A stretch of 64,000 bases of DNA from Patescibacteria group bacterium. GTDB lineage: Bacteria > Patescibacteriota > CPR2 > UBA1875. The notes beneath the pieces were generated by a model. That model worked only from the letters and a program-made list of their open reading frames with translations, did no database searches and was not told the DNA's origin. Position numbers and translations under genes: made by a program. Of the stretch, positions 3,474 through 35,862 are shown one piece after another (the first letter of the stretch is position 1; each line of letters opens with the position of its first letter). The DNA is taken from the NCBI GenBank assembly GCA_041737595.1, contig JBGSRK010000011.1, positions 2,658-66,657 of the forward strand. Reading direction: 5' to 3'.

Positions 3474-4424
3474 TTGAAAAATTCAGAAATTAGAAAAGAT
3501 TATTTTTTAGATAAATATGTAATTATTGCTCCTAAAAGGAAAAATAAACCCAAAAAGGTAGCCAATATAGACGATAGTAGTCCTTCGAGTTGTTATTTTT
3601 GTAGCCCACAGGTTGATGATCCAAAGAATCAAATACAAATAAAAAATTATAATTTTGGAGAACATTCTTGGAGAATAAAAGTTATTGGAAATCTATATCC
3701 AGCCCTTTCTAAAGATAATATTAAAGCTTATGGATACCAGGAGGTAATTATTGAAACTCCTGAACATAATAAAGAAATACATGAACTTTCAAATGATCAA
3801 ATGCATAAAATTTTTGATGTATATATAGATAGATATAAAACCTTAATGCAGAAAAAAGGTATTTGTTATGTTGTAGTTTTCAAAAATGAAGGGGGTAAGG
3901 CAGGAGCATCAATACCACATGCCCATTCGCAGGTATATGCTCTCCCAATTATTCCCCCAAGAATTTCAGCTGAAGCAGATGCCGCTGATAATTATTTCCA
4001 AAAACATAAATCTTGTCCTTATTGTGACATTATAAAAAGTGAAAAAGATGGCCCCAGGGTTATTTGGGAAGATGAACATTTGTTTGTACTCGCACCGTAT
4101 GCTTCGGAGTCTCCTTATGGTGCTTGGTTTTTACCAAAAAGACACATAAGATCAATTCTAGATTTAAGAGAAGTGGAAAAAGATTCTTTCGTAAGAGCAT
4201 TGAAATCATTACTTACAAAATTAGACGAGATAGATGTTTCTTATAATTATTTTTTCCAAAACTCATTAGATAATGAATCTCATCATCTAATTTTAAAATT
4301 AGCCCCAAGACCAAATGTTTGGGGAGGGCTTGAGCTTGATACTGGTATAATTGTAAATCCAATGCCACCAGAAGAAGCAGTCAAATTTTATCAAAAAGGG
4401 ATCGGAGCTCAGTCAAATCTATAA
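3474..4424 (+). CDS. HIT-superfamily nucleotidyltransferase, galactose-1-phosphate uridylyltransferase (GalT)-like
   Basis: 316 aa with a CYFCSP zinc motif and the HAHSQ (H-x-H-x-Q) motif of the GalT branch, arranged as two half-domains. TTG start with AAGGAGGGG Shine-Dalgarno. Confidence 0.55.
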   Translation: MKNSEIRKDYFLDKYVIIAPKRKNKPKKVANIDDSSPSSCYFCSPQVDDPKNQIQIKNYNFGEHSWRIKVIGNLYPALSKDNIKAYGYQEVIIETPEHNKEIHELSNDQMHKIFDVYIDRYKTLMQKKGICYVVVFKNEGGKAGASIPHAHSQVYALPIIPPRISAEADAADNYFQKHKSCPYCDIIKSEKDGPRVIWEDEHLFVLAPYASESPYGAWFLPKRHIRSILDLREVEKDSFVRALKSLLTKLDEIDVSYNYFFQNSLDNESHHLILKLAPRPNVWGGLELDTGIIVNPMPPEEAVKFYQKGIGAQSNL

Positions 4425-4474: not shown

Positions 4475-5137
4475 TTATAAGTTCTTTTTTAATCTTGCGA
4501 TAACTTCTTTTGCTGCATCTTGTCCACCAAGACCAAAGGCTAAACCTCCGGCAATAGCAAGCATTGCAAAAAAAGCTGTAACCATTGTGCTAATTATTGC
4601 AGTTGCAATCCCTAGCTCTAAAAGAGCTGCGAGAACAACGAATACAACAACAGCCCATCTTGTTACATCAGCAGCAATAGCTGCAGTTGTAGCTCCGATT
4701 GTTTGAGCTGTTGATTCAACTACTCGTGAAAGTAAGTCAGCAACAACTACACCAACCATAACTATAACCACTGCAACAACTACGCTAGGCATATATTCTA
4801 CAACAGAAGCTGTAAGATCGCCGACACGTTTTAGACCAAGAATTTCAGAAGCTGGAACAAGAGACGTAATGATAATAATCCATTTTGCCAAATCTCCTAA
4901 AAGTTCTGGTAAGTCTAATTTTGCTGCAAATACTTTATTTAGACCGATTGCATCTGTATAAGGTTTAAGTTTGATAAACTTTAACACTCTTACAAGTACA
5001 ACTTTGACGGCCCAAGCAACAAGAACACCTAATAAAACAACGACCAAAGCACCAAGTATCTCAGGGATGTAATTTACTACATCTGTAAGAGATGCTTTAA
5101 CGGCGTCAGTCGTTAATGTTGTCCATTCTTTTAACAT
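4475..5137 (-). CDS. membrane protein with repeated conserved TM-helix segments (MscS-N-terminal-like)
   Basis: Hydrophobic repeats are present. The start is moved to the internal ATG (MLKEWTT), which is preceded by a strong GGAAAGGAGGTG Shine-Dalgarno. The ORF-track start at 5203 lacks a Shine-Dalgarno. Confidence 0.5.
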   Translation of the reverse strand: MLKEWTTLTTDAVKASLTDVVNYIPEILGALVVVLLGVLVAWAVKVVLVRVLKFIKLKPYTDAIGLNKVFAAKLDLPELLGDLAKWIIIITSLVPASEILGLKRVGDLTASVVEYMPSVVVAVVIVMVGVVVADLLSRVVESTAQTIGATTAAIAADVTRWAVVVFVVLAALLELGIATAIISTMVTAFFAMLAIAGGLAFGLGGQDAAKEVIARLKKNL

Positions 5138-5649: not shown

Positions 5650-6796
5650 ATTTAGGGCTATATAGCAATATACCTAATTTAATTTGGATAGCATCAGAAA
5701 ATTTCCTTGGGTCAAGCCCAATTTCTTTTTTTATTTTATCAAGACGATAAATAAGAGTATTACGATGTAAATGTAATTTTTTTGAAGCAATAGTTAAATT
5801 CATATCTGAGTTTAAAAATATTTCAACCGTTTTATATAGGCTTGGTTCATCAAATAATTTGCCTATGATTTGGTGAGCGAGTTCACACTTTCTTTCAACG
5901 GTTATATTACTTGATAAGGCCATATACATGCCCACATCAGTTATATGATATATTTTTTCATCTCCCCAAATTTTTTTTCCTAAGGTTAAAGAAGATTGGG
6001 CATCCATAAATGATTTTCTTAAACCTGAAAGTCCAGGATAATATTGACCAACCCCTATAGTAGGAGTTATTCCTGTATATTTTTTTATTGTTTCACTAAT
6101 ATATTTAGCTTTAGATTTATAAAAATTTACTGTATTTAGGGTGTTAATTTGTCCTTTGGCCCACTTTAAAACGATAAACTTATTAGGTCCAAAACAGGTA
6201 AAAATATTTTGTTCATAATTTTTAAATGACATTTTTAAATCTGAAATTATTTTTTTACATTCTTTGTTAATTAAAATATCAATTTTATCCTTTTGCATTG
6301 TATTAAATTTTTTATAGAAGTTTTTATATAAACCAGGGACTTCAATTATTAACACTGCTTGTTGTGATCTTAGGTTAAGCCCCAGAATATCTGCTTTATC
6401 TATCGCCTGGTCAAAATTTTTTATTACATCTGTCTCAAGTAATTCCTTAATAAATGTACTTTTAGGATTATTGTATTTAATTGATTGTTCTTTTAAAAAT
6501 GTTTCATAAGATATTTCATTTATTAGCCCATCAAGAAGTTCTATTTGATTATCTATACTTTTTTTATTTATTTTAATACCAATTGTCCCAAGTGTGACAT
6601 TATTTATAACTATTGGTTTCCAATAAATATTATCTTTTTGTTTAATGATTGATTTTTCAGCAACTCTTTTTGCTATTTCAAAATATTTTCCGTTCCCATC
6701 TATCTCAACACCACTTGTTTCAGTAATAGTATAAATATTACTTATTACGGATTTAACTAATTTTGAAATACTGTATATATCAAATGAATTATCCAT
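5636..6796 (-). CDS. PucR/CdaR-family transcriptional regulator (C-terminal HTH_30)
   Basis: C-terminus LHLHRNTLIYRLDKIKKEIGLDPRKFSDAIQIKLGILL is the PucR-type HTH. It is preceded by a GGDEF-like region (IGVGQYYPGLSGLRKSF). Confidence 0.6.
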   Translation of the reverse strand: MDNSFDIYSISKLVKSVISNIYTITETSGVEIDGNGKYFEIAKRVAEKSIIKQKDNIYWKPIVINNVTLGTIGIKINKKSIDNQIELLDGLINEISYETFLKEQSIKYNNPKSTFIKELLETDVIKNFDQAIDKADILGLNLRSQQAVLIIEVPGLYKNFYKKFNTMQKDKIDILINKECKKIISDLKMSFKNYEQNIFTCFGPNKFIVLKWAKGQINTLNTVNFYKSKAKYISETIKKYTGITPTIGVGQYYPGLSGLRKSFMDAQSSLTLGKKIWGDEKIYHITDVGMYMALSSNITVERKCELAHQIIGKLFDEPSLYKTVEIFLNSDMNLTIASKKLHLHRNTLIYRLDKIKKEIGLDPRKFSDAIQIKLGILLYSPKSKNC

Positions 6797-21113: not shown

Positions 21114-21527
21114 TTAAAAGCCTGCTTCGTCTAGCGCTTCATTAACTAACTTGTCAGCTTCTTTATTAAATTCACGTCGGATATGGCTAAAGGTGATATT
21201 TTTAAAAAATATTAAATCTTTAATTTGATTAAATAACTCTTTCATGCCAGGCTCTTTAACTTTATATACGCCTGTAAGTTGTTTAACAACAAGCTCAGAA
21301 TCAAGACGACATTCAATTTCTTCAGGTTCAAACTTTTGAGCTCTTTTTATTGCTATGACAAGCGCGGTATATTCTGCGACGTTGTTTGTTGCTTTACCAA
21401 TATATTCCTTATGTTCTTCAATTATATTGCCTAATTCATCATAAATAACAATGCCAATACCAGCTGGGCCAGGGTTATTGCGTGAACCGCCGTCTGTGTT
21501 TATTATTAATTTTTTATATTTTTTCAT
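21114..21527 (-). CDS. rnhA: ribonuclease HI
   Basis: INTDGGSRNNPGPAGIGIVI...EYTALVIAIK and the catalytic DEDD residues. Confidence 0.85.
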   Translation of the reverse strand: MKKYKKLIINTDGGSRNNPGPAGIGIVIYDELGNIIEEHKEYIGKATNNVAEYTALVIAIKRAQKFEPEEIECRLDSELVVKQLTGVYKVKEPGMKELFNQIKDLIFFKNITFSHIRREFNKEADKLVNEALDEAGF

Positions 21528-21676: not shown

Positions 21677-21876
21677 AGATATTCAAGAAAATATCTAGTT
21701 TTTTTGTATTATCATCTCGACTTTGTTTTGTCATTCTGAGCGTAGCGAAGAATCTAAATTTAGATCCTTCACATTTGTTCAGGATGACATATAGGGGAGG
21801 GGTTAATGTTTAAAAAGATATTCAAGAAAATATCTCGTACTTTAGTATTGTCATCCCGAGTGAAATCGAGGGATCT
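21677..21876. repeat. cluster of short palindromic repeat modules (family 1) plus a 20-bp direct repeat
   Basis: agatattcaagaaaatatct at 21677-21696 and 21816-21835. Module A tgtcattctgagcgtagcgaagaatct at 21729-21755. Module B gatccttcacatttgttcaggatgaca at 21763-21789. Variant ttgtcatcccgagtgaaatcgagggatct at 21848-21876. The same modules occur at 51731-51890 and 52225-52413. Confidence 0.85.
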
Positions 21877-21982
21877 AGGCTTTAAAGGGTTGCACCCTTT
21901 TAAAAAGGGACTGTCCCTTTTTAAGGGGTTCCATCAATTAAGGTTTAAAACAACTTTCCATCTTCACCTTAAAGCTTCAAGG

Positions 21983-24900
21983 ATGAATTGGTATAAAAGG
22001 TGGCATGATTACAAATTTTCACACCATGTACACTCTGCAACTGCAGTAGTGGCAATTTTTACATTAATTTTTTCTTTATTCATATTCCCTCATGAGACAA
22101 AAGCTTCACTTGTCGAAACAACCAAAACAATTACCAGTGAAAATGATTTTAATTTAGGTAGTCATTCTAATACCGAAACAACAAATATTTCTGGAGGCGA
22201 GGTTAGGCTTGAAACAATAGAAAATTGGTGGAATACATCTTGGACCAAAAGAAAAGAAATAACTGTTACAAATAGTAACCCTACTGTTTTAACTGATTAT
22301 GAATTAAAAATCACCACTAGTTATGATTCTGATATGCAAGCAGATTTTGATGATTTGCGATTTACTAATTTAGCTGGTACAGAACTTGGTTATTGGATTG
22401 AAACTAAAACCAATAGTGTTTCAGCTAACGTTTGGGTGAAAATAAATTCATTAGCAGCATCCAGCGATACAAAAATTTATGTTTATTATGGGAACAATAG
22501 TGTTTCCACTACAAGTAATAAAACAGTTATTTCTCCAATTGTAACGTCTGGCGGGACAACAACTACTTCTGGTTCAGCTGTAATTCATAAATTCACATCA
22601 ACAGGAACATTCACGGTTAGTGGTGGGAGCGGAACTGTCGAGGCACTTGTGGTTGCTGGCGGCGGTGGTGGAGGAGGGCGAATGGGTGGCGGCGGCGGAG
22701 CTGGAGGGTTGCTTTATAATGCAACATTACCGGTTAGTTCTCAGAGTTATACAGCTACAATAGGTGGCGGCGGTGCGGGCGGATATTCAGCTGCATCAGG
22801 TGTAAAAGGTTCAAATTCAGTTTTTAGTACACTCACTGCGATTGGCGGGGGAGGAGGCGGTTATTATAGTAATGTGGCTGGCATTACAGGTGGTTCTGGT
22901 GGTGGTGGTGGTGGCTCTTCAAGCACTACAACTGGGTCTGCTGGAGGATCAGAAACTTCTGGACAAGGATATTCAGGGGGTAGATCAGGTGGTTCTTCTT
23001 ATAAATACGATGGAGGTGGTGGTGGAGGTGCTGGTGGTTTAGGACAAGATGGTCAATCAAATCGAGGTGGGAATGGTGGGGTTGGTAAACAATATTCAAT
23101 CTCTGGTGTTACTACCTATTATGCAGGAGGTGGAGGTGGCGGCGGTTACTATTATTCCCCTTACTGCACAGCTACAAGTGTTGGTGGTTTGGGTGGAGGC
23201 GGTGCAGGTAATTGCCTGTCTGGTGGAAATGGTACAGCTGGTACTGCAAATACTGGCGGTGGTGGAGGCGGTGCAGGCTATTCAACTGGTAGAGGTGGTG
23301 CTGGTGGCTCAGGTATTGTAATTATCCGTTATGATTTTCGCACTCCAGCAGCCGTGGAACCTACTTTTACGTTTGGGAATGAAATTGCTTCTATAACATC
23401 TTCCGGTACATGGCAATCACCAACAGATATTGAAAATGGAGCAATTGACCTTATTTGGAATGGAGGATGGGGGACTCCAAACGGGTTAGAAGTAGACGTC
23501 ACAATCCCAACTAATTCTTTAATTAATTTTGAAATTCGTTCAAGTGCCATTGGTGGAGCTTCAGATGGCGACTGGTCTTCTTGGCAAAATATTGGCTCAG
23601 CGACCCCCGGAACAACTACTTATATGGTTACAAATGGGAATATGCCGAGTAATGCGAATTTACCAATTGGGACTAATCGATATGTACAATTAAGAGCAAA
23701 TTTAAGTAGTTCTGATGGAGTAGGCAACCCTCAATTAAAAGAAATGCGGCTTATCTATATGGCAGATAATAATGCACCAACAAACCCTAATTTAGTAGAA
23801 GGGTTTAAAGATGATTCTAAAAATAATACTGTTTCCGATGAAAATTGGTCAAATTCAAACACCCCATACTTTGAATGGACTGGAGAAGCTGATGGCCCTG
23901 GTGAATCTGGTATAGATGGTTATTGGGTATATTTTGGAACAGACCCAACAGCCGATCCTATGACTGCTGGAGCTTGGCAGGTCACAAATACATACCAAGC
24001 AAGTATTGATGAAGCTCAATCAGGGAAAACATATTATTTATGCATATCTACTCAAGATGAGGCATTAAACCGTTATTTAAATGGTGATCCAAATTATTTT
24101 AAAACATTCACTTACAAATTTGATAAAACCTTACCTCAGAATCCTTCAAATGTTACAGTTGACCCTTTTGGGTGGGCAACAGTTAATGAATTTGATTTTA
24201 ATTGGAATGCAGGGTCTGACCCAATGTTTAATGGTGATGCATCTGGGATTGCGGGTTATCAATACCGAGTCGGAGATACAGGTGACTGGAGTGTTACAGT
24301 AACAGATAGATCACTCAATAATGTAATTGCTTATCAAAATGGAGAAAATAACTTTTATTTAAGAACAGTTGATAACGCAGGGAATATTTCCGAACCTCCT
24401 GCACAAATAATTTACAGATACAATGCAGATGCACCTGAGAAACCAACATATCTTACTGTAAATCCTCAATCATCTCAGGAAAATAGTTTTACTTTTGAAT
24501 GGGACCTACCAGATTCATATAATGGCTCAATTAAAAAATATTATTATTCTGTAAATGCTATACCATCAGAAAATAATTCAGTTCAAATTAGTGTAAATAA
24601 CCCTCCTTCAAATGTGACAATTGATGGTGAGGGCCATGTAATACTTGATTCAATCACTGCTGCATCACAACAAGGTTTAAATACTTTTTATGTTGTAGCA
24701 ATGGATGATACAGAAAATATTAACTTTAATAATTATGAACAAATCCAATTTGAATGTAATACTCCTGCCCCTGGTTCTCCAACATCAGTTAAAATATTTG
24801 ATACCTCTGACAGAGAAGAACAAGAATATTCAATAGCACTTTCATGGAAAGAACCGACATTTACTGGGGTTGGTTTTTCCGGTTATATAATTGAACGTTC

Positions 24901-26281
24901 TGATGATAATAATCATTTTGATGTCATTGGAGCTGGTTCCTCACCTTCATTTATAGATATTGAACTTGAAAGTAGAACATATTATTATCGTGTTCTTTCA
25001 AAAGATAATTCAGGTAATGTTTCAGCCCCAAGTACTGTTGTTTCTATTGTCCCAACCGGTAAATATACTACCCCACCTGAACTTACTGATGGTCCAACAA
25101 TTGAATACAAGATTTCTTCAGCCAAAGTTTCTTGGCTTACAGATAGAGAAGCTTCATCATTTGTAGAAATAGGTGAAAATACAAATTATGGTTTAACCCA
25201 GGGTCAATTTGATTTTTTGAAAAAACATGAAGTAAATTTAGATAATTTAAAACCTGATACAATTTATCATTACAGAGTCAAATATGTAGATCAAGATGGT
25301 AATATTGGATATTCAGCTGATTCTACCTTTAAAACAGAACCAGCCCCAAGAGCAGCAAATGTAGAAATTTTTGATATCAGATTAACAACTGCTGTTATAA
25401 ATTGGAACACAACGGCCCCTGCAGAGTGTAGTGTCCTTATTGGTAAAAATTCAAATTATTCAACTACTATCGAAAATGTTTCAGGTGGGTTTACTAAATC
25501 CCACTCTGTTAGACTTTCGGATTTAGAACATTCATCGCTTTATCATTTTGCAATAAGAATAAAAGATATTGATGATAATGAAGTTATTTCAGATGATTAT
25601 TCCTTTGAGACATTAAAATTTCCTAAAGTATCTTTAGTAAGGCTTGAACCGATTAAAGATGCTTCAACTGCAACCATGAAATTTACCTGGACAACTAATG
25701 TTCCAACAACATCGGTGATAGAATATACTCCTCAAGGTGGACGAACACAAGAAGCTGTTAGTTCGAAATTAATAACTACACATGAGTTAACGATTCCAGG
25801 GCTTCAAGATAATACCCCATATGTCGTTCAAATTCTAGGAAGAGATCAATTTGGGAATCAACCAATTTCTGATAGACAGACATTTAAAACAGATTTTGAT
25901 ACTAGACCACCAAAAGTTAGTAATGTAACCAGTGAGTCAGAAATTCTTGGTTATGGTCTTGAAGCAAAAGGGCAACTTGTTGTTTACTGGGAAACAGATG
26001 AACCATCAACTTCTCAGGTTGAGTTTGGAATAGGCTCAAATAGTTCTTCTTACACAAATAAGACCCAAGAAGATACAAATTATGTTACATCACATGTAGT
26101 TATTGTTTCAGATTTAAAAACATCTGCTCCTTATCATATTCGTACTGCTTCGAAAGATCAATCTGGGAATGTTGGTTATTCAGAAGACCGTTCTACTCTT
26201 ATTGGGCAAGCTAGTAATTCAGTCTTTGATATAATAGTAGAAACATTAAATGCTACACTTGGCTGGTTATTTAGGCTATAA
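21983..26281 (+). CDS. giant cell-surface protein: N-terminal TM anchor, DUF2341 (concanavalin-like) domain, Gly-rich beta-helix-like region, then multiple fibronectin-III / purple-acid-phosphatase-N-like repeats
   Basis: WNTSWTKRKEITV...LGYWIETK...VWVKINSL...IYVYYGN matches DUF2341. ALVVAGGGGGGG...GGGGAGG...IVIIRYDF is a Gly-rich domain. At least five repeats have the pattern W.TDEPS...VEYG...Y...H.V.LSDLKP.T.YHYR. The ORF-track start at 21806 is inside the repeat/palindrome zone. The first plausible start is ATG at 21983 (MNWYKRW...TM), but the exact start is uncertain. Confidence 0.65.
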   Translation: MNWYKRWHDYKFSHHVHSATAVVAIFTLIFSLFIFPHETKASLVETTKTITSENDFNLGSHSNTETTNISGGEVRLETIENWWNTSWTKRKEITVTNSNPTVLTDYELKITTSYDSDMQADFDDLRFTNLAGTELGYWIETKTNSVSANVWVKINSLAASSDTKIYVYYGNNSVSTTSNKTVISPIVTSGGTTTTSGSAVIHKFTSTGTFTVSGGSGTVEALVVAGGGGGGGRMGGGGGAGGLLYNATLPVSSQSYTATIGGGGAGGYSAASGVKGSNSVFSTLTAIGGGGGGYYSNVAGITGGSGGGGGGSSSTTTGSAGGSETSGQGYSGGRSGGSSYKYDGGGGGGAGGLGQDGQSNRGGNGGVGKQYSISGVTTYYAGGGGGGGYYYSPYCTATSVGGLGGGGAGNCLSGGNGTAGTANTGGGGGGAGYSTGRGGAGGSGIVIIRYDFRTPAAVEPTFTFGNEIASITSSGTWQSPTDIENGAIDLIWNGGWGTPNGLEVDVTIPTNSLINFEIRSSAIGGASDGDWSSWQNIGSATPGTTTYMVTNGNMPSNANLPIGTNRYVQLRANLSSSDGVGNPQLKEMRLIYMADNNAPTNPNLVEGFKDDSKNNTVSDENWSNSNTPYFEWTGEADGPGESGIDGYWVYFGTDPTADPMTAGAWQVTNTYQASIDEAQSGKTYYLCISTQDEALNRYLNGDPNYFKTFTYKFDKTLPQNPSNVTVDPFGWATVNEFDFNWNAGSDPMFNGDASGIAGYQYRVGDTGDWSVTVTDRSLNNVIAYQNGENNFYLRTVDNAGNISEPPAQIIYRYNADAPEKPTYLTVNPQSSQENSFTFEWDLPDSYNGSIKKYYYSVNAIPSENNSVQISVNNPPSNVTIDGEGHVILDSITAASQQGLNTFYVVAMDDTENINFNNYEQIQFECNTPAPGSPTSVKIFDTSDREEQEYSIALSWKEPTFTGVGFSGYIIERSDDNNHFDVIGAGSSPSFIDIELESRTYYYRVLSKDNSGNVSAPSTVVSIVPTGKYTTPPELTDGPTIEYKISSAKVSWLTDREASSFVEIGENTNYGLTQGQFDFLKKHEVNLDNLKPDTIYHYRVKYVDQDGNIGYSADSTFKTEPAPRAANVEIFDIRLTTAVINWNTTAPAECSVLIGKNSNYSTTIENVSGGFTKSHSVRLSDLEHSSLYHFAIRIKDIDDNEVISDDYSFETLKFPKVSLVRLEPIKDASTATMKFTWTTNVPTTSVIEYTPQGGRTQEAVSSKLITTHELTIPGLQDNTPYVVQILGRDQFGNQPISDRQTFKTDFDTRPPKVSNVTSESEILGYGLEAKGQLVVYWETDEPSTSQVEFGIGSNSSSYTNKTQEDTNYVTSHVVIVSDLKTSAPYHIRTASKDQSGNVGYSEDRSTLIGQASNSVFDIIVETLNATLGWLFRL

Positions 26282-32574: not shown

Positions 32575-32883
32575 TTATTTTATAAAAATCAGTATTGTAA
32601 GTCCTAAGACAGTATATAAACCAAGCCAGCTAATACTATAAATAGCTGATTTTATACTTTCACTCTTATTTTTATCTAGAAATAAAATAACTGATTGACC
32701 TAAAATAAGTCCTCCAACAACAGCTGCTGAAAAAGAAAAAAGCAGTAAAATTACAAATGGTGTCATAGAATTATTTTTTCCAAACCAATTTTCTCCATGT
32801 ACCATAACTTGAGATACTAAAAAAATATATATGACAGCTAAAGCAGAATTTCTAAATGTTTTTAATAATAATATTTTATCCAT
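32575..32883 (-). CDS. small membrane protein (uncharacterised)
   Basis: 102 aa with three predicted TM helices. Confidence 0.4.
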   Translation of the reverse strand: MDKILLLKTFRNSALAVIYIFLVSQVMVHGENWFGKNNSMTPFVILLLFSFSAAVVGGLILGQSVILFLDKNKSESIKSAIYSISWLGLYTVLGLTILIFIK

Positions 32884-33069
32884 ATAATAATTATAACATT
32901 TTAGTTAAATAATTAATGAGATAGTTTTAATAAATATCAGAATAGAGCGTAGTTAAAAAAGTGTAGAACCTTTACCATTTTGTTTTAGATACATATATGT
33001 TGAAGGCCGCCTCACAGCGGACGACCTTCAAGAAGGATCCGATATAGACGGCCTTTGTTTGTAGCGGAG

Positions 33070-33522
33070 CTACCCAAGCTCCAATGTGAATGTGAGGTTG
33101 GCGTCGACGTCGTAGCCTTCAGCAACCTTTTGCAGGATTGCAACTGCTTCAGTACAGTCGATGAACCCCTCAGAACCTACGTCCCACAGAGACTGATGAG
33201 GCCCATGCTTCTCTATCTCTTGTGGCGCGTAATAGTCCTCCAGGATGTTAACCACCTCATCCATGATGCTTGGAGGTATGTTCCAAATGCGTGGCGTGAT
33301 AGAGATTATGGCAGTGTTGTCACAGATATCCTTCCAAGCAGTCAGAACGCCTTGGGCCAAAATTACCGCGGTCTTGACCTCAATTGACCCCGACACTGTG
33401 AGTTCATAACACTCGGCGATGTCTTTGATATCAGACACTTCGTCAAGTTTGACCCCCAGTGAGTCGGCGACTCCCAACACTATCTCGCGCAACTGCCTTA
33501 GCCTCTTCGGAATAATCGGCAT
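33070..33522 (-). CDS. hypothetical protein encoded in the G+C-rich island
   Basis: 150 aa starting MPIIPKRLRQ. Strong GGGAGGAG Shine-Dalgarno 7 nt upstream. G+C is markedly higher than the flanks. The AT-rich 92-codon extension in the ORF track (to 33798) has no Shine-Dalgarno and a different composition. Confidence 0.5.
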   Translation of the reverse strand: MPIIPKRLRQLREIVLGVADSLGVKLDEVSDIKDIAECYELTVSGSIEVKTAVILAQGVLTAWKDICDNTAIISITPRIWNIPPSIMDEVVNILEDYYAPQEIEKHGPHQSLWDVGSEGFIDCTEAVAILQKVAEGYDVDANLTFTLELG

Positions 33523-33756
33523 CAAAATCTCCTCCCAGGTTCTAGATTTAGAGTGGCAACGATCTTTTATTGCTTTACTCTTATCTTCAATGGTAGCAGT
33601 ATACAAAAAATATTTTAGATTGTAAATAATAATATCCATATTGTGGCCCAATAAAGCCAAATTAGTTGATAATAGCAGACCTGTCTCGCAAAGATCAAAG
33701 AGTGAAATATGGAAGAAGTTTGGGAATTGTTTAATGTTTTTTGATATAATTATCTT

Positions 33757-33987
33757 ATGAAAAGAATTAAAATATTTTGCTCTAATTGTAATATTCAACT
33801 CTATTCATATAATAAAGATATTCGAGGCCATCTAATTAAATGCTATAAAGATATGATTATTAAGGATTTTACTAACCAGGGTTTAAAATGTCCCAATTGT
33901 GATCAAAAATTTGCAAGAGAGGCCTTATATCATAACCGGCCAGCAAATAAGATTATTCAAGGTAAGGTATTTACAAAAGGGGCTTAA
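33757..33987 (+). CDS. small CxxC...CxxC zinc-finger protein (tentative)
   Basis: 76 aa with CSNC...CPNC. Confidence 0.3.
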   Translation: MKRIKIFCSNCNIQLYSYNKDIRGHLIKCYKDMIIKDFTNQGLKCPNCDQKFAREALYHNRPANKIIQGKVFTKGA

Positions 33988-34069
33988 GAACTTCTATAAA
34001 AGCTATAAAGTAATTATTGTCGATATAATTGTTTTTATATAGCAGAAAGCCCCGTAGAGGCGGCTTTCG

Positions 34070-35023
34070 CTAGTTCTCTTGCGGGGCTTGTGGGATGACA
34101 CGAGGTGATTCGACTGTACGATTCTCTAGCCAGTTGGCGGCCGAGTCGAAATCAGAGAAGTCGCAGACGGCTGTGTGTTTGTATGCTTCTTCCTGACTTT
34201 GAACATCTGGTGGAACGTTGTTGTAGTCAACTACGATGAAGCGGTCTCCGACGACATTGACGTGTCCGTAGGTCCAGTATCTTCCTCCAGCTACAAAGTA
34301 GACAGCATGTCTATACTCACTAATGTGCCAGTAACCAATTTCAGTACAGTCTCTTTCTAAAACCGAGACTTTCGGGACTGTAGCTGCCTGAATTTCTTCC
34401 TCAGTAACCTCGTACATTCGTCGTTGTTTAGTCCACGGGAACTCTTTCCAATGAGCTAACAGCGTCTCTCGTTCTTCAGCCCTAATTTCCTCCCGAGCCA
34501 CATATTGATCTACCCCAAAGTGCTTGCGGTGAATTGGGATCGGAAAGCCATCGGCGATGCGATTGAGACCAAGGTTCGTTAGGTCGGTGTCCACCATAAC
34601 ATCGAGTCCTTGATGGTGGAAGTGTGCAGCGAATTTGTCGACACAGTCAGCTTCATGGAACCCAGCGATCACCACCTTACCCAACTCTCCTTGTATTTGA
34701 TTCTGCACGAAGGCTGGGTCGGCGTAGATCTCCTGATCCAGTTGGTCTCGCGTGATGCCTGAAGCCAGGAACCCATCAGTTGGATATATATTCACGTGAG
34801 TTGTAATCCAGCGAAGATCTGGTTCTAGTGTGTTGTCTGGTTCTGAAAACAGCAACCAGAGTACTTTGAATCCTCTTTGTCTATAACGAACATCGATAAG
34901 CGAGTCGAAGTAGGGGAATACGTATTTGCAGCATTCAGGAGAGCCAAGAGAGAAGCCAAGGTCTTTCTGTTCATGTTCGAAGTACCTCATGTCTGGGTAC
35001 ACGAACAAAAGGATGTCTTGCAT
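34070..35023 (-). CDS. G+C-rich island protein: isochorismatase-like (cysteine-hydrolase fold) N-domain fused to an unknown C-domain
   Basis: 317 aa. VVIAGFHEADCVDKFAAHFHHQGLDVMVDTDL resembles the catalytic-Cys strand of isochorismatase-family hydrolases. AAGGAGGT Shine-Dalgarno. G+C is about half, against about one-third in surrounding genes. Confidence 0.45.
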   Translation of the reverse strand: MQDILLFVYPDMRYFEHEQKDLGFSLGSPECCKYVFPYFDSLIDVRYRQRGFKVLWLLFSEPDNTLEPDLRWITTHVNIYPTDGFLASGITRDQLDQEIYADPAFVQNQIQGELGKVVIAGFHEADCVDKFAAHFHHQGLDVMVDTDLTNLGLNRIADGFPIPIHRKHFGVDQYVAREEIRAEERETLLAHWKEFPWTKQRRMYEVTEEEIQAATVPKVSVLERDCTEIGYWHISEYRHAVYFVAGGRYWTYGHVNVVGDRFIVVDYNNVPPDVQSQEEAYKHTAVCDFSDFDSAANWLENRTVESPRVIPQAPQEN

Positions 35024-35252
35024 CGTGTACCTCCTTAGAAGGTGCGGGATTTACAGGGTTGAATTGTATACTAAAATATAGAAAATGTCAATGAAATGTT
35101 AATGGTTATTATATTTAAAAAACCCATATAAAGCCATAAAGTAAGTATTAGTGGAGTGTAGTGGGGTATATGTGGTACTTACATTATTCTAGTTGTATCC
35201 AATAATAGGAGGTATACTCTAATTAGGTAGTATTTTAATAAAGGATTTAATT

Positions 35253-35447
35253 ATGACTAATTTAGAAGAAATTAAAAGAAAAGAAGCCCGTCAGCAAAAA
35301 GTTATTTCTATGCTTCGTCAAAAAAACGCCAAACTAGATCATAAAATGGCCGATATTCAAGGGGAAGAGACACGTTTACAGCAACAGATAGATACTGAAA
35401 TTAAAAAATTGGAAGCAATTCAACGGTCTGCACAAAATAATATGTAA
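35253..35447 (+). CDS. small coiled-coil protein (uncharacterised)
   Basis: 64 aa, charged and helical, between the island and ssrA. Confidence 0.3.
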   Translation: MTNLEEIKRKEARQQKVISMLRQKNAKLDHKMADIQGEETRLQQQIDTEIKKLEAIQRSAQNNM

Positions 35448-35475
35448 TGTTTTAACTAAATAAAAAATTAAACAT

Positions 35476-35862
35476 TGGTGGAGCTGGCGGGAATTGAACC
35501 CGCGTCCGAAAGCAAAAACAAAATAAATTTAGCAACCATACTTAGCTCTGTTGTTTTAGATACAGACTAAAGAACCAAGAAAAAATCTATATCCTATTTC
35601 TTATGTCTTAGACGTGATTAAGAAAATCACACGTAGCAGTCCGAAAATATAACACCTCGAACTCCCTATCGGACGTCAGGGGCGAGATGGTTGTATGCGA
35701 TTAGGCTACAACTGGTGCAAAAGTAGGCATGCTGAAAGCAGCTTTTACTTTTGCGGCAAGTGAGTTTACACTTGTTGTTTAACGCATTGAATAACGCGGA
35801 TACGTTACCGCGGATTGCATTATTTTGTTTTTAATGTACCTTCGTCGAAGCCTGGCAGCCCC
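35476..35862 (-). ncRNA. ssrA: transfer-messenger RNA (tmRNA)
   Basis: 5' end GGGGCUGCCAGGCUUCGACG and 3' end GGACGCGGGUUCAAUUCCCGCCAGCUCCACCA form the tRNA-Ala-like acceptor/T-arm with the G3·U pair. The internal tag ORF GCC GCA AAA GUA AAA GCU GCU UUC AGC AUG CCU ACU UUU GCA CCA GUU GUA GCC UAA encodes (A)AKVKAAFSMPTFAPVVA. smpB lies 1.5 kb away. Confidence 0.85.

Follow-up and report, generated by a model that had tools for sequence, protein, structure and literature searches.

Probable mobile gene cassettes arrayed downstream of ssrA in a Saccharibacteria-like bacterium

The 64,000-nucleotide (nt) stretch of Patescibacteria DNA analysed here (contig JBGSRK010000011.1 of assembly GCA_041737595.1; hereafter the window, meaning the whole 64 kb) carries an intact gene for transfer-messenger RNA (tmRNA), ssrA, and behind it a 2.5-kb run of four small units. 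This run starts at the last base of ssrA, extends from 35475 to 32940, and ends at a gene for a membrane protein of 102 amino acids (aa). Read outwards from ssrA, the order is unit 1, cassette A, unit 3, cassette B, a terminal repeat and the membrane-protein gene (Table 1). Each of the two cassettes holds a single G+C-rich open reading frame (ORF), named ORF A and ORF B. ORF A starts 453 nt beyond the ssrA 3' end, in line with the distance of about 450 bp given by the original prediction, which had been made from the sequence alone and had taken the two genes for one island. The A+T-rich unit 1 carries a 64-aa coiled-coil ORF (35253-35447, plus strand) with weak coiled-coil matches in Pfam and PHROG and nothing else; the zinc-ribbon ORF of unit 3 has weak zinc-ribbon matches in Pfam and matches to PHROG 5602/4875. 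An Rfam scan of the island returned the tmRNA as its one match. ARAGORN assigns this tmRNA a 22-aa tag peptide, VNSLAAKVKAAFSMPTFAPVVA (35701-35769, minus strand), and a Saccharibacteria-type tmRNA in another locus (L026; comparison loci from genomes and metagenomes are labelled L001-L039) has the tag ADAFRVNVFAPVVA; both tags end FAPVVA.

The two genes stand out in composition. G+C is 0.46-0.51 at 32950-33550 and 34000-35050 and 0.23-0.35 between and around these blocks (300-nt windows), and the whole window has a G+C of 0.32. The G+C content of third codon positions (GC3) places ORF A and ORF B 9 and 12 standard deviations, respectively, from the 54 other ORFs of the window, which served as the background for composition. 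The codons GAG, CTG, GCC, CGC, GAC and ATC are each enriched in both genes alike, and the intergenic DNA within the region has 0.30-0.34 G+C. Two far G+C-richer minus-strand genes, a shift towards the first four of these codons and A+T-rich intergenic DNA had all been claimed from inspection of the sequence, and all three claims hold on measurement. The composition supports ORF A and ORF B as foreign genes at the ssrA 3' end.

Both genes also come with their own expression signals. Each is preceded by a sigma-70-like promoter, and the promoter region of cassette A is kept in a related locus, L001, as is the promoter of cassette B in another, L002. The Shine-Dalgarno sequences are AAGGAGGT, 5 nt upstream of the ATG of ORF A, and GGGAGGAG, 6 nt upstream of the ATG of ORF B, and were rightly described beforehand as unusually strong. 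A G+C-rich hairpin closes each cassette: that of cassette A is kept in L001 (-14.3 kcal/mol), and that of cassette B takes in, as part of a larger structure at about 33003-33055, the hairpin previously placed at 33003-33030. Read from these signals, each G+C-rich gene is a putative independent, self-contained expression cassette.

The units are separated by copies of a junction repeat of about 32 nt, GTTCCAAACTTCTTCTACTAYGCTCCACCA, for which L002 and other copies give the consensus RGTTCCAAACTTCTTCTACTAYGCTCCACCA. The last 9 nt of the repeat are those of ssrA itself (GCTCCACCA, 35484-35476) and form the core common to the junction repeats; downstream of the core there is usually a short GGCTT...AAGCC hairpin followed by a T-run. 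The left arm is not ssrA sequence, and is near base-for-base constant across genomes of 0.32-0.47 G+C whose ssrA T-arms differ. The repeat contains a short palindrome, with arms of up to 12 bp in one copy from L006, and keeps a constant orientation whatever the strand of the genes.

In the window, decayed ssrA-like repeats lie at all four junctions, contrary to the earlier claim that no flanking ssrA direct repeat was present (local alignments to the junction consensus were each judged against 500 shuffles; Table 1). A repeat model built from 17 copies, R1, has its best match in the 64 kb at 35162-35118 on the minus strand (18.2 bits, E = 9.4e-5) and its second-best at the true ssrA end (35484-35446, E = 0.002). 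An ungapped scan of both strands with the 32-nt arm-plus-core consensus, using 200 Markov windows as the null, placed its best match at 32971-32940 (minus strand, 23/32; 0/200 null windows reach 23) and its second-best at 35180-35149 (minus strand, 21/32), both of them within the island and in the ssrA orientation. Junction repeat 1 contains a 36-nt match to L002 706-741 and is followed by the remnant of an ssrA-terminator-like hairpin and T-run that opens cassette A. Cassette A is further bracketed by a 20-nt direct repeat (35149-35130 and 34018-33999, 90% identity, spacing 1131 nt; repeat family D2), which agrees with the homology block common to the window and L001. At junction 3 homology to L002 begins at 33662, at the L002 core, and in the terminal repeat the core has decayed to GCTCTATTC.

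Table 1. Features of the array and its flanks, listed outwards from ssrA, with the background ORFs used for composition
Feature	Position	Strand	Description
tmRNA gene (ssrA)	35476-35862	-	ARAGORN; Rfam RF00023, 126.7 bits, full length
Unit 1	35150-35475	-	A+T-rich, G+C 0.30
Junction repeat 1 (before A)	35118-35180	-	Decayed left arm and core CACTACACTCCACTA; score 60, 0/500 shuffles
Cassette A promoter	35063-35091	-	TTGACA, 17 nt, TACAAT; sigma-70-like, 11/12 matches in consensus scan
ORF A	34070-35023	-	317 aa; GC 0.48; GC3 0.50; z (GC3) 9.0
Hairpin closing cassette A	34040-34072	-	G+C-rich; -17 kcal/mol, z = -4.1; without U-tract
Junction repeat 2 (after A)	33993-34019	-	Decayed post-core part CAATAATTACTTTATAGCTTTTATAGA; score 32, 0.2% of 500 shuffles
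Unit 3	33757-33987	+	A+T-rich; 76-aa zinc-ribbon ORF on the strand opposite to A and B; GC3 0.22
Junction repeat 3 (before B)	33645-33726	-	Decayed, interrupted: left arm TTCCCAAACTTCTTC, post-core hairpin TTTGGCTTTATTGGGCC opening cassette B
Cassette B promoter	33598-33626	-	TTTACA, 17 nt, TATACT; sigma-70-like, 10/12 matches in consensus scan
ORF B	33070-33522	-	150 aa; GC 0.51; GC3 0.60; z (GC3) 12.0
Hairpin closing cassette B	33003-33055	-	G+C-rich, imperfect; -28.9 kcal/mol, z = -3.8
Terminal junction repeat (after B)	32940-32975	-	AAAGGTTCTACACTTTTTTAACTACGCTCTA; score 38, 0/500 shuffles; distal array end
Conserved 102-aa membrane-protein gene	32575-32883	-	Host flank, distal side of the array
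Background ORFs (n = 54)			GC 0.310 ± 0.036 (max 0.415); GC3 0.196 ± 0.034 (max 0.284)

Other identities for the repeat were considered and rejected. It is not a general promoter or terminator motif, since it is confined to arrays and has a single orientation regardless of gene strand; nor is it a tRNA-like 3' half, as ARAGORN detects nothing at these sites and a 5' acceptor partner is lacking. Scans of viral contigs with the repeat gave no phage-borne attachment site (attP): pattern 1 matched only the coding coincidence GDFYYAPP, which is also what lies behind the metagenome loci L025, L029, L032 and L033, and pattern 2 matched only unrelated coding sequence in L035. The genome matches L010, L011 and L016 are chance or coding matches that have no left arm.

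Where else are the two genes found? Proteins of either kind are very rare: besides itself, ORF A has five homolog clusters and ORF B has one. The closest homologs of both come from the same metagenome, SRR7589087, and lie on different contigs: in L001 the ORF A homolog (76% at the aa level) adjoins a His_Phos_1 gene, and in L002 the ORF B homolog (87%) sits among YkuD, Ham1, SET-domain and other genes. In both loci the homologs are likewise G+C-rich spikes within A+T-rich DNA. Nucleotide homology to the window is confined to 35142-34027 for L001 (78%) and to 33662-33043 for L002 (85%), the flanks being unrelated, and both blocks consist of promoter, ORF and hairpin and begin only a few nt from the repeat core. 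Cassette B of the window ends in a decayed repeat that is homologous to the one after the B cassette of L002 (score 51, 0/500 shuffles) even though the DNA beyond differs, which implies that the moving unit includes its 3' repeat. The idea of one two-gene island is not supported, because an A+T-rich unit and repeat remnants lie between A and B and because the relative has the two genes on separate contigs. In L002 a second small G+C-rich ORF (3822-4043; 73 aa, apparently a membrane protein) precedes the hairpin of the B cassette; the cassette in the window is without it through an indel of about 250-300 bp.

More distant homologs of ORF A occur in L005 and L003, in both cases without a neighbouring B. 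The L005 homolog (45% identical) has an ssrA-like 3' fragment, GGTTCAATTCTCGTTCGCTCCACCA, on one side and a standard repeat on the other. The L003 homolog (37% identical, full-length) lies on a 4.1-kb contig (JGI 3300038998) of 58% G+C that carries small unannotated ORFs and no junction repeat. The G+C content of this contig suggests that the donor range may reach beyond Saccharibacteria, and L003 may represent a donor lineage rich in G+C.

The ratio of nonsynonymous to synonymous divergence (dN/dS) is 0.12 for A (window versus L001) and 0.11 for B (window versus L002), values that indicate that both genes are kept by purifying selection. The synonymous divergence (dS) of A in the window from its L001 counterpart is 1.14; even so, GC3 is 0.50 in either copy and changes at third positions are symmetric (55 versus 53), which argues against long evolution under the A+T bias of the host (GC3 about 0.2). 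We infer that most of the divergence of A would have arisen in a G+C-richer pool, and that the arrivals would have been recent or independent. The island had been described as possibly old and degraded, and this is true of its decayed junction repeats; it is not true of the genes, which are intact, have their own promoters and show dN/dS values of 0.11-0.12.

We also compared the ssrA-proximal region with those of relatives. The membrane-protein gene on the distal side of the array (product of 102/103 aa) is 62% identical to L028 5913-6224, which lies just beyond the last repeat of the L028 ssrA array, and on the other side of ssrA the genes for SmpB and a GT4 glycosyltransferase (53% identity) are syntenic with L007. 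The syntenic ssrA arrays of L007 and L028, from two other Saccharibacteria, hold other genes, and both A and B are absent from them.

A scan of public genomes and metagenomes located the repeat in assemblies of Candidatus Saccharibacteria and Patescibacteria. In four independent cases the true ssrA 3' end is followed by one to four repeat-closed units: a single unit in L007, in L019 and in L026, and in L009/L028 three repeats at successive distances of 1.4, 0.9 and 1.8 kb, then a weak fourth copy after another 1.6 kb. In L002 a repeat in the same orientation stands between all seven genes, making seven consecutive single-gene units of 515-950 bp, and it is present whether the genes are A+T- or G+C-rich and on either strand; L006 has three consecutive single-gene units delimited in the same way. 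Units in the other arrays measure 0.5-1.9 kb, and their cargo is varied and often compositionally foreign, including acetyltransferases, NUDIX, VanZ, methyltransferases and many uncharacterised genes. The true ssrA genes of L007 and L009 are followed by the same type of hairpin that follows each repeat core, which fits cassettes that bring a replacement ssrA terminator. Cassette composition is uncoupled from that of the host in both directions, with a 209-aa ORF of GC3 0.67 in a genome of 0.40 (L028) and a cassette of 0.35 G+C in a genome of 0.47 (L017). In L006 an NDK-like ORF (GC3 0.54) about 1.8 kb from the repeat array has no repeats of its own.

Two further loci add detail. On the 848-kb contig of L017 (2876-3532 and 3682-3749), a 218-aa ORF whose N-terminus, we presume, resembles ComM/YifB and which may be truncated is followed by a copy of the repeat and a cassette that is A+T-rich. 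In L026 the tmRNA gene ends ACTCCACCA, and one base later there is a second core-like sequence, GCTCCGCCA (812-830), that could be an empty or scarred attachment site.

Our proposal, to which we give a probability of roughly 0.6, is that mobile gene cassettes have accumulated at 35475-32940 as a small array whose anchor is the 3' end of ssrA in a genome of Saccharibacteria type. To the cassette boundaries, repeats, differing locations in relatives, foreign composition and purifying selection observed here, it would add the following course of events. A cassette would consist, in order, of a surrogate ssrA terminator hairpin, a promoter with a strong Shine-Dalgarno sequence, an ORF, a G+C-rich hairpin and the attachment-site-like repeat of about 32 nt, and the cassettes would derive from a G+C-richer gene pool common to related bacteria. 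They would have entered serially at the GCTCCACCA core, each newcomer restoring the 3' end and the terminator of ssrA and pushing the older units outwards. The cassettes would be joined site-specifically by a recombinase whose gene lies elsewhere in the genome, as happens with non-autonomous cassettes; the single-gene units, the lack of a recombinase in cis and the element-type arm favour this kind of capture. Homologous recombination through the conserved repeats or flanks after natural transformation may have contributed.

Several observations weigh against this proposal. No recombinase was found with Pfam among 40 larger ORFs of the window or the five ORFs in or beside the island, so that the lack of an integrase noted in the original prediction is borne out, and none was found among the ORFs examined in the arrays L002, L006, L007, L008 and L028, where not every ORF was scanned. 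No circular or empty-site form was observed. The junction repeats of the window are decayed, and junction 3 is the weakest of the four, its gapped alignment being matched by 3.6% of shuffles and its R1 matches having E values of 0.43 (33726-33712) and 4.6 (33672-33645). Identity between ssrA and the repeat amounts to only 9-11 nt, well-preserved copies sharing just GCTCCACCA(AT) with ssrA. L001 has a hairpin remnant and no clear repeat, and adjacency of the L002 array to ssrA is not visible because the contig ends. Finally, the model leaves unexplained how the arrays of L005 and L008 begin: 45-60 nt past a tRNA-Leu gene, each is opened by a 26-nt fragment near-identical to the ssrA 3' end, GGTTCAATTC[C/T]CGTTCGCTCCACCA (L005 359-410; L008 5136-5164, minus strand), and no other part of ssrA can be seen within these short loci.

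Among the alternatives, the one that survives best, although we consider it unlikely, is exchange solely by homologous recombination after natural transformation, with ssrA, the flank genes and the 30-45-nt repeats serving as anchors and no dedicated recombinase taking part. Saccharibacteria have natural competence and incorporate the DNA through homologous recombination (PMC10633639), conserved genes bracket the array, and the scanned ORFs contain no recombinase, all of which this explanation accommodates. However, the repeat is near-identical across genomes of 0.32-0.47 G+C with differing ssrA T-arms, contains a palindrome and keeps a fixed orientation whatever the orientation of the genes, and a protein-recognised site fits these properties better than passive homology. 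Moreover, 30 nt is short for RecA, and the same cassette is also found between unrelated flanks.

A single old, degraded integrative element, such as a prophage or genomic-island remnant that entered once at ssrA and then lost its integrase and most of its genes, corresponds to the reading of the original prediction and is a less probable explanation still. Remnants of integrative elements at tRNA genes (tDNAs) are well known (PMC4383910; 10.1101/2020.12.28.424599), and the position at the ssrA 3' end, the decayed repeats, the lack of an integrase and the foreign composition would all suit one. Against such an element stand the A+T-rich unit and internal repeat remnants that separate A from B, the relative in which A and B lie on separate contigs with different neighbours and homology limited to each cassette, the absence of phage homologs, and the recurrence in several genomes of integrase-less arrays of 0.5-1.9-kb units with well-preserved repeats.

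It is very unlikely that A and B form a functional pair, toxin and immunity or defence, inherited as one module: they occur together here, both have homologs in SRR7589087 and both carry strong expression signals, but in the relative they are not adjacent, the L003 and L005 homologs of A have no neighbouring B, neither gene has PADLOC or PHROG matches, and each has a separate promoter and terminator hairpin. Least probable of all is an assembly or binning chimera joining G+C-rich fragments of another organism into an A+T-rich contig, for although sharp composition steps in metagenome-derived sequence invite the suspicion, the steps coincide with ORF ends, the host-like A+T-rich promoter and 5' untranslated region are conserved with the ORF in another sample, the same step pattern recurs in L001, L002, L005 and L028, and an independent Logan contig (L004, SRR28170473) reproduces 36023-34022, covering ssrA, unit 1 and ORF A, with 100% identity, though its reads may be those that went into the deposited assembly.

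Islands at tmRNA genes are already well known, and the proposed cassette array shares much with tRNA- and tmRNA-gene islands of the Islander type (PMC4383910): the ssrA 3' end as the site, an intact target, apparent copies of the 3' end at unit boundaries, and tandem stacking that pushes older units outwards. It differs in that its units measure 0.3-1.9 kb, mostly hold one gene and show no integrase inside, the four small island ORFs being devoid of recombinase domains. A further difference is that just 9-11 nt are common to ssrA, the rest being an element-specific arm conserved across genomes.

The resemblance to integrons lies in arrays of mostly single-gene cassettes (seven units in L002 and four in the window), each with one site-like repeat at its 3' end, in the single orientation of the repeats, in foreign and miscellaneous cargo and in a fixed anchor. 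Unlike integrons, however, the array has no IntI beside it, it is anchored at the ssrA 3' end and not at attI, and A and B carry promoters and terminator hairpins. The repeat also departs from integron attC sites: the 17-copy alignment, read by eye, has a short palindrome and the GCTCCACCA core, with no R''/L''-L'/R' layout and no GTTRRRY or RYYYAAC boxes.

Another parallel is offered by the islands of Prochlorococcus shaped by tycheposons (10.1101/2020.12.28.424599), with a streamlined genome, flexible genes beside tRNA or tmRNA genes, scattered partial tDNA repeats and newcomers that push older material inwards. A tycheposon spans several kb and brings along recombinase and replication modules of its own, whereas no such genes were found in the arrays examined here and the repeats bound single genes. 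Staphylococcal cassette chromosome (SCC) and pseudo-SCC islands at rlmH likewise include tandemly arranged cassettes that lack a recombinase, are presumably mobilised in trans and have as their boundaries direct repeats matching the 3' end of a conserved gene; they differ in their target gene, in their much larger units and in having known Ccr serine recombinases in the same species. In a limited literature search on Saccharibacteria and Patescibacteria we found nothing relevant on integrons or ssrA-linked cassette arrays, and no description of repeat-delimited arrays of promoter-bearing cassettes behind ssrA that have a conserved junction site and no recombinase in cis.

Saccharibacteria have genomes of about 1 Mb and live as epibionts on other bacteria, and to our knowledge little has been established about the ways in which they acquire and exchange accessory genes. 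Tentatively, we suggest that Saccharibacteria, and perhaps other Patescibacteria, might possess an integron-like capture system in which promoter-bearing single-gene cassettes with a conserved, ssrA-mimicking site of about 32 nt are inserted serially at ssrA by a recombinase encoded elsewhere, such arrays being a major store of exchangeable accessory genes. If the proposal is true, a fixed cassette array at ssrA gives a defined place to seek the flexible genes of Saccharibacteria, and it points to a recombination site, and possibly a recombinase, that could be used as genetic tools in a group that has recently become tractable. Sharp single-gene G+C spikes in such genomes could then be read as cassette boundaries and not as assembly errors.

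What do the two cassettes encode? ORF A comprises an isochorismatase-like N-domain (residues 1-200) and a rare C-domain (about 203-317). The N-domain family has about 410 clusters at 50% identity and consists mostly of stand-alone proteins of about 195 aa. ORF A itself has no Pfam match at E <= 1, PF00857 included, while 33 of 85 family members match PF00857 weakly (best E = 5.7e-6) and the N-domain profile matches the putative isochorismatase 3kl2 at its Cys motif (E = 0.12). An AlphaFold (AF2) model of ORF A has a predicted local distance difference test score (pLDDT) of 83.5 and a predicted template modelling score (pTM) of 0.82. In a Foldseek search of the PDB with this model, the top 50 matches are all isochorismatase-like hydrolases (E 2e-4 to 3e-3, probability about 1.0), with template modelling (TM) scores relative to the target of 0.32-0.53. 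The predicted structure thus gives the N-domain the three-layer alpha/beta fold of these hydrolases, and the isochorismatase-like domain proposed from the sequence alone is supported by the Foldseek matches and by the weak PF00857 matches of its relatives.

Cys127, in the motif GFHxxDCV, does not vary among 85 sequences, and the CV (nucleophile) motif of 3kl2 aligns with it. Other conserved residues are R46/Y47/R48, D83, H123 and D126, and neither the usual triad Asp nor the Lys is evident among the conserved columns. ORF A shares with isochorismatase-like cysteine hydrolases (PF00857; PncA, NicF, BiuH, CSHase) the fold and an invariant Cys in a G-x-x-x-x-C-V strand-turn motif, and differs from them in the absence of a Pfam match at that threshold and in its additional C-domain. 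It is a remote isochorismatase-like hydrolase and probably acts as a cysteine-dependent amidohydrolase. The C-domain is about 115 aa long, not 150 aa as first estimated, and is found in just four known proteins, which fall into three 50%-identity clusters.

ORF B, as had been stated, belongs to no recognisable family. Scans of both ORFs against Pfam, PHROG, PADLOC and NCBIfam gave no match, and neither did a tblastn search of 50,697 phage records with the two proteins. Fold searches with a model of ORF B predicted from the single sequence (pLDDT 71) returned nothing below E = 0.05 in the PDB or BFVD, only generic beta-alpha-beta modules.

Stand-alone relatives of the ORF A N-domain also occur in a different setting. 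In L036 (1-6825), L038 (1-7098) and L039 each is the last in a series of 8-10 small genes on one strand. Directly next to this series, in convergent orientation, lies the gene for an Xer-like tyrosine recombinase (217-223 bits to XerC/XerD models, below the cut-offs), and beyond it come gltX, murG and ftsW. A direct repeat of 94 nt (4841-4934 and 5666-5759, 88% identity) stands on both sides of the relative in L038. The region may be another repeat-bounded cassette region.

The sole other rise of G+C in the window, 0.41-0.44 at 22000-24000, falls within a 1491-aa ORF (21806-26281, plus strand). It was considered as a second island and rejected: second codon positions have a G+C content of 0.48 and GC3 is a host-like 0.19, so the rise reflects amino-acid composition and not foreign DNA. 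Just upstream of this ORF lies a 137-aa RNase H / RVT_3-type ORF (21114-21527, minus strand), probably an ordinary RNase HI.

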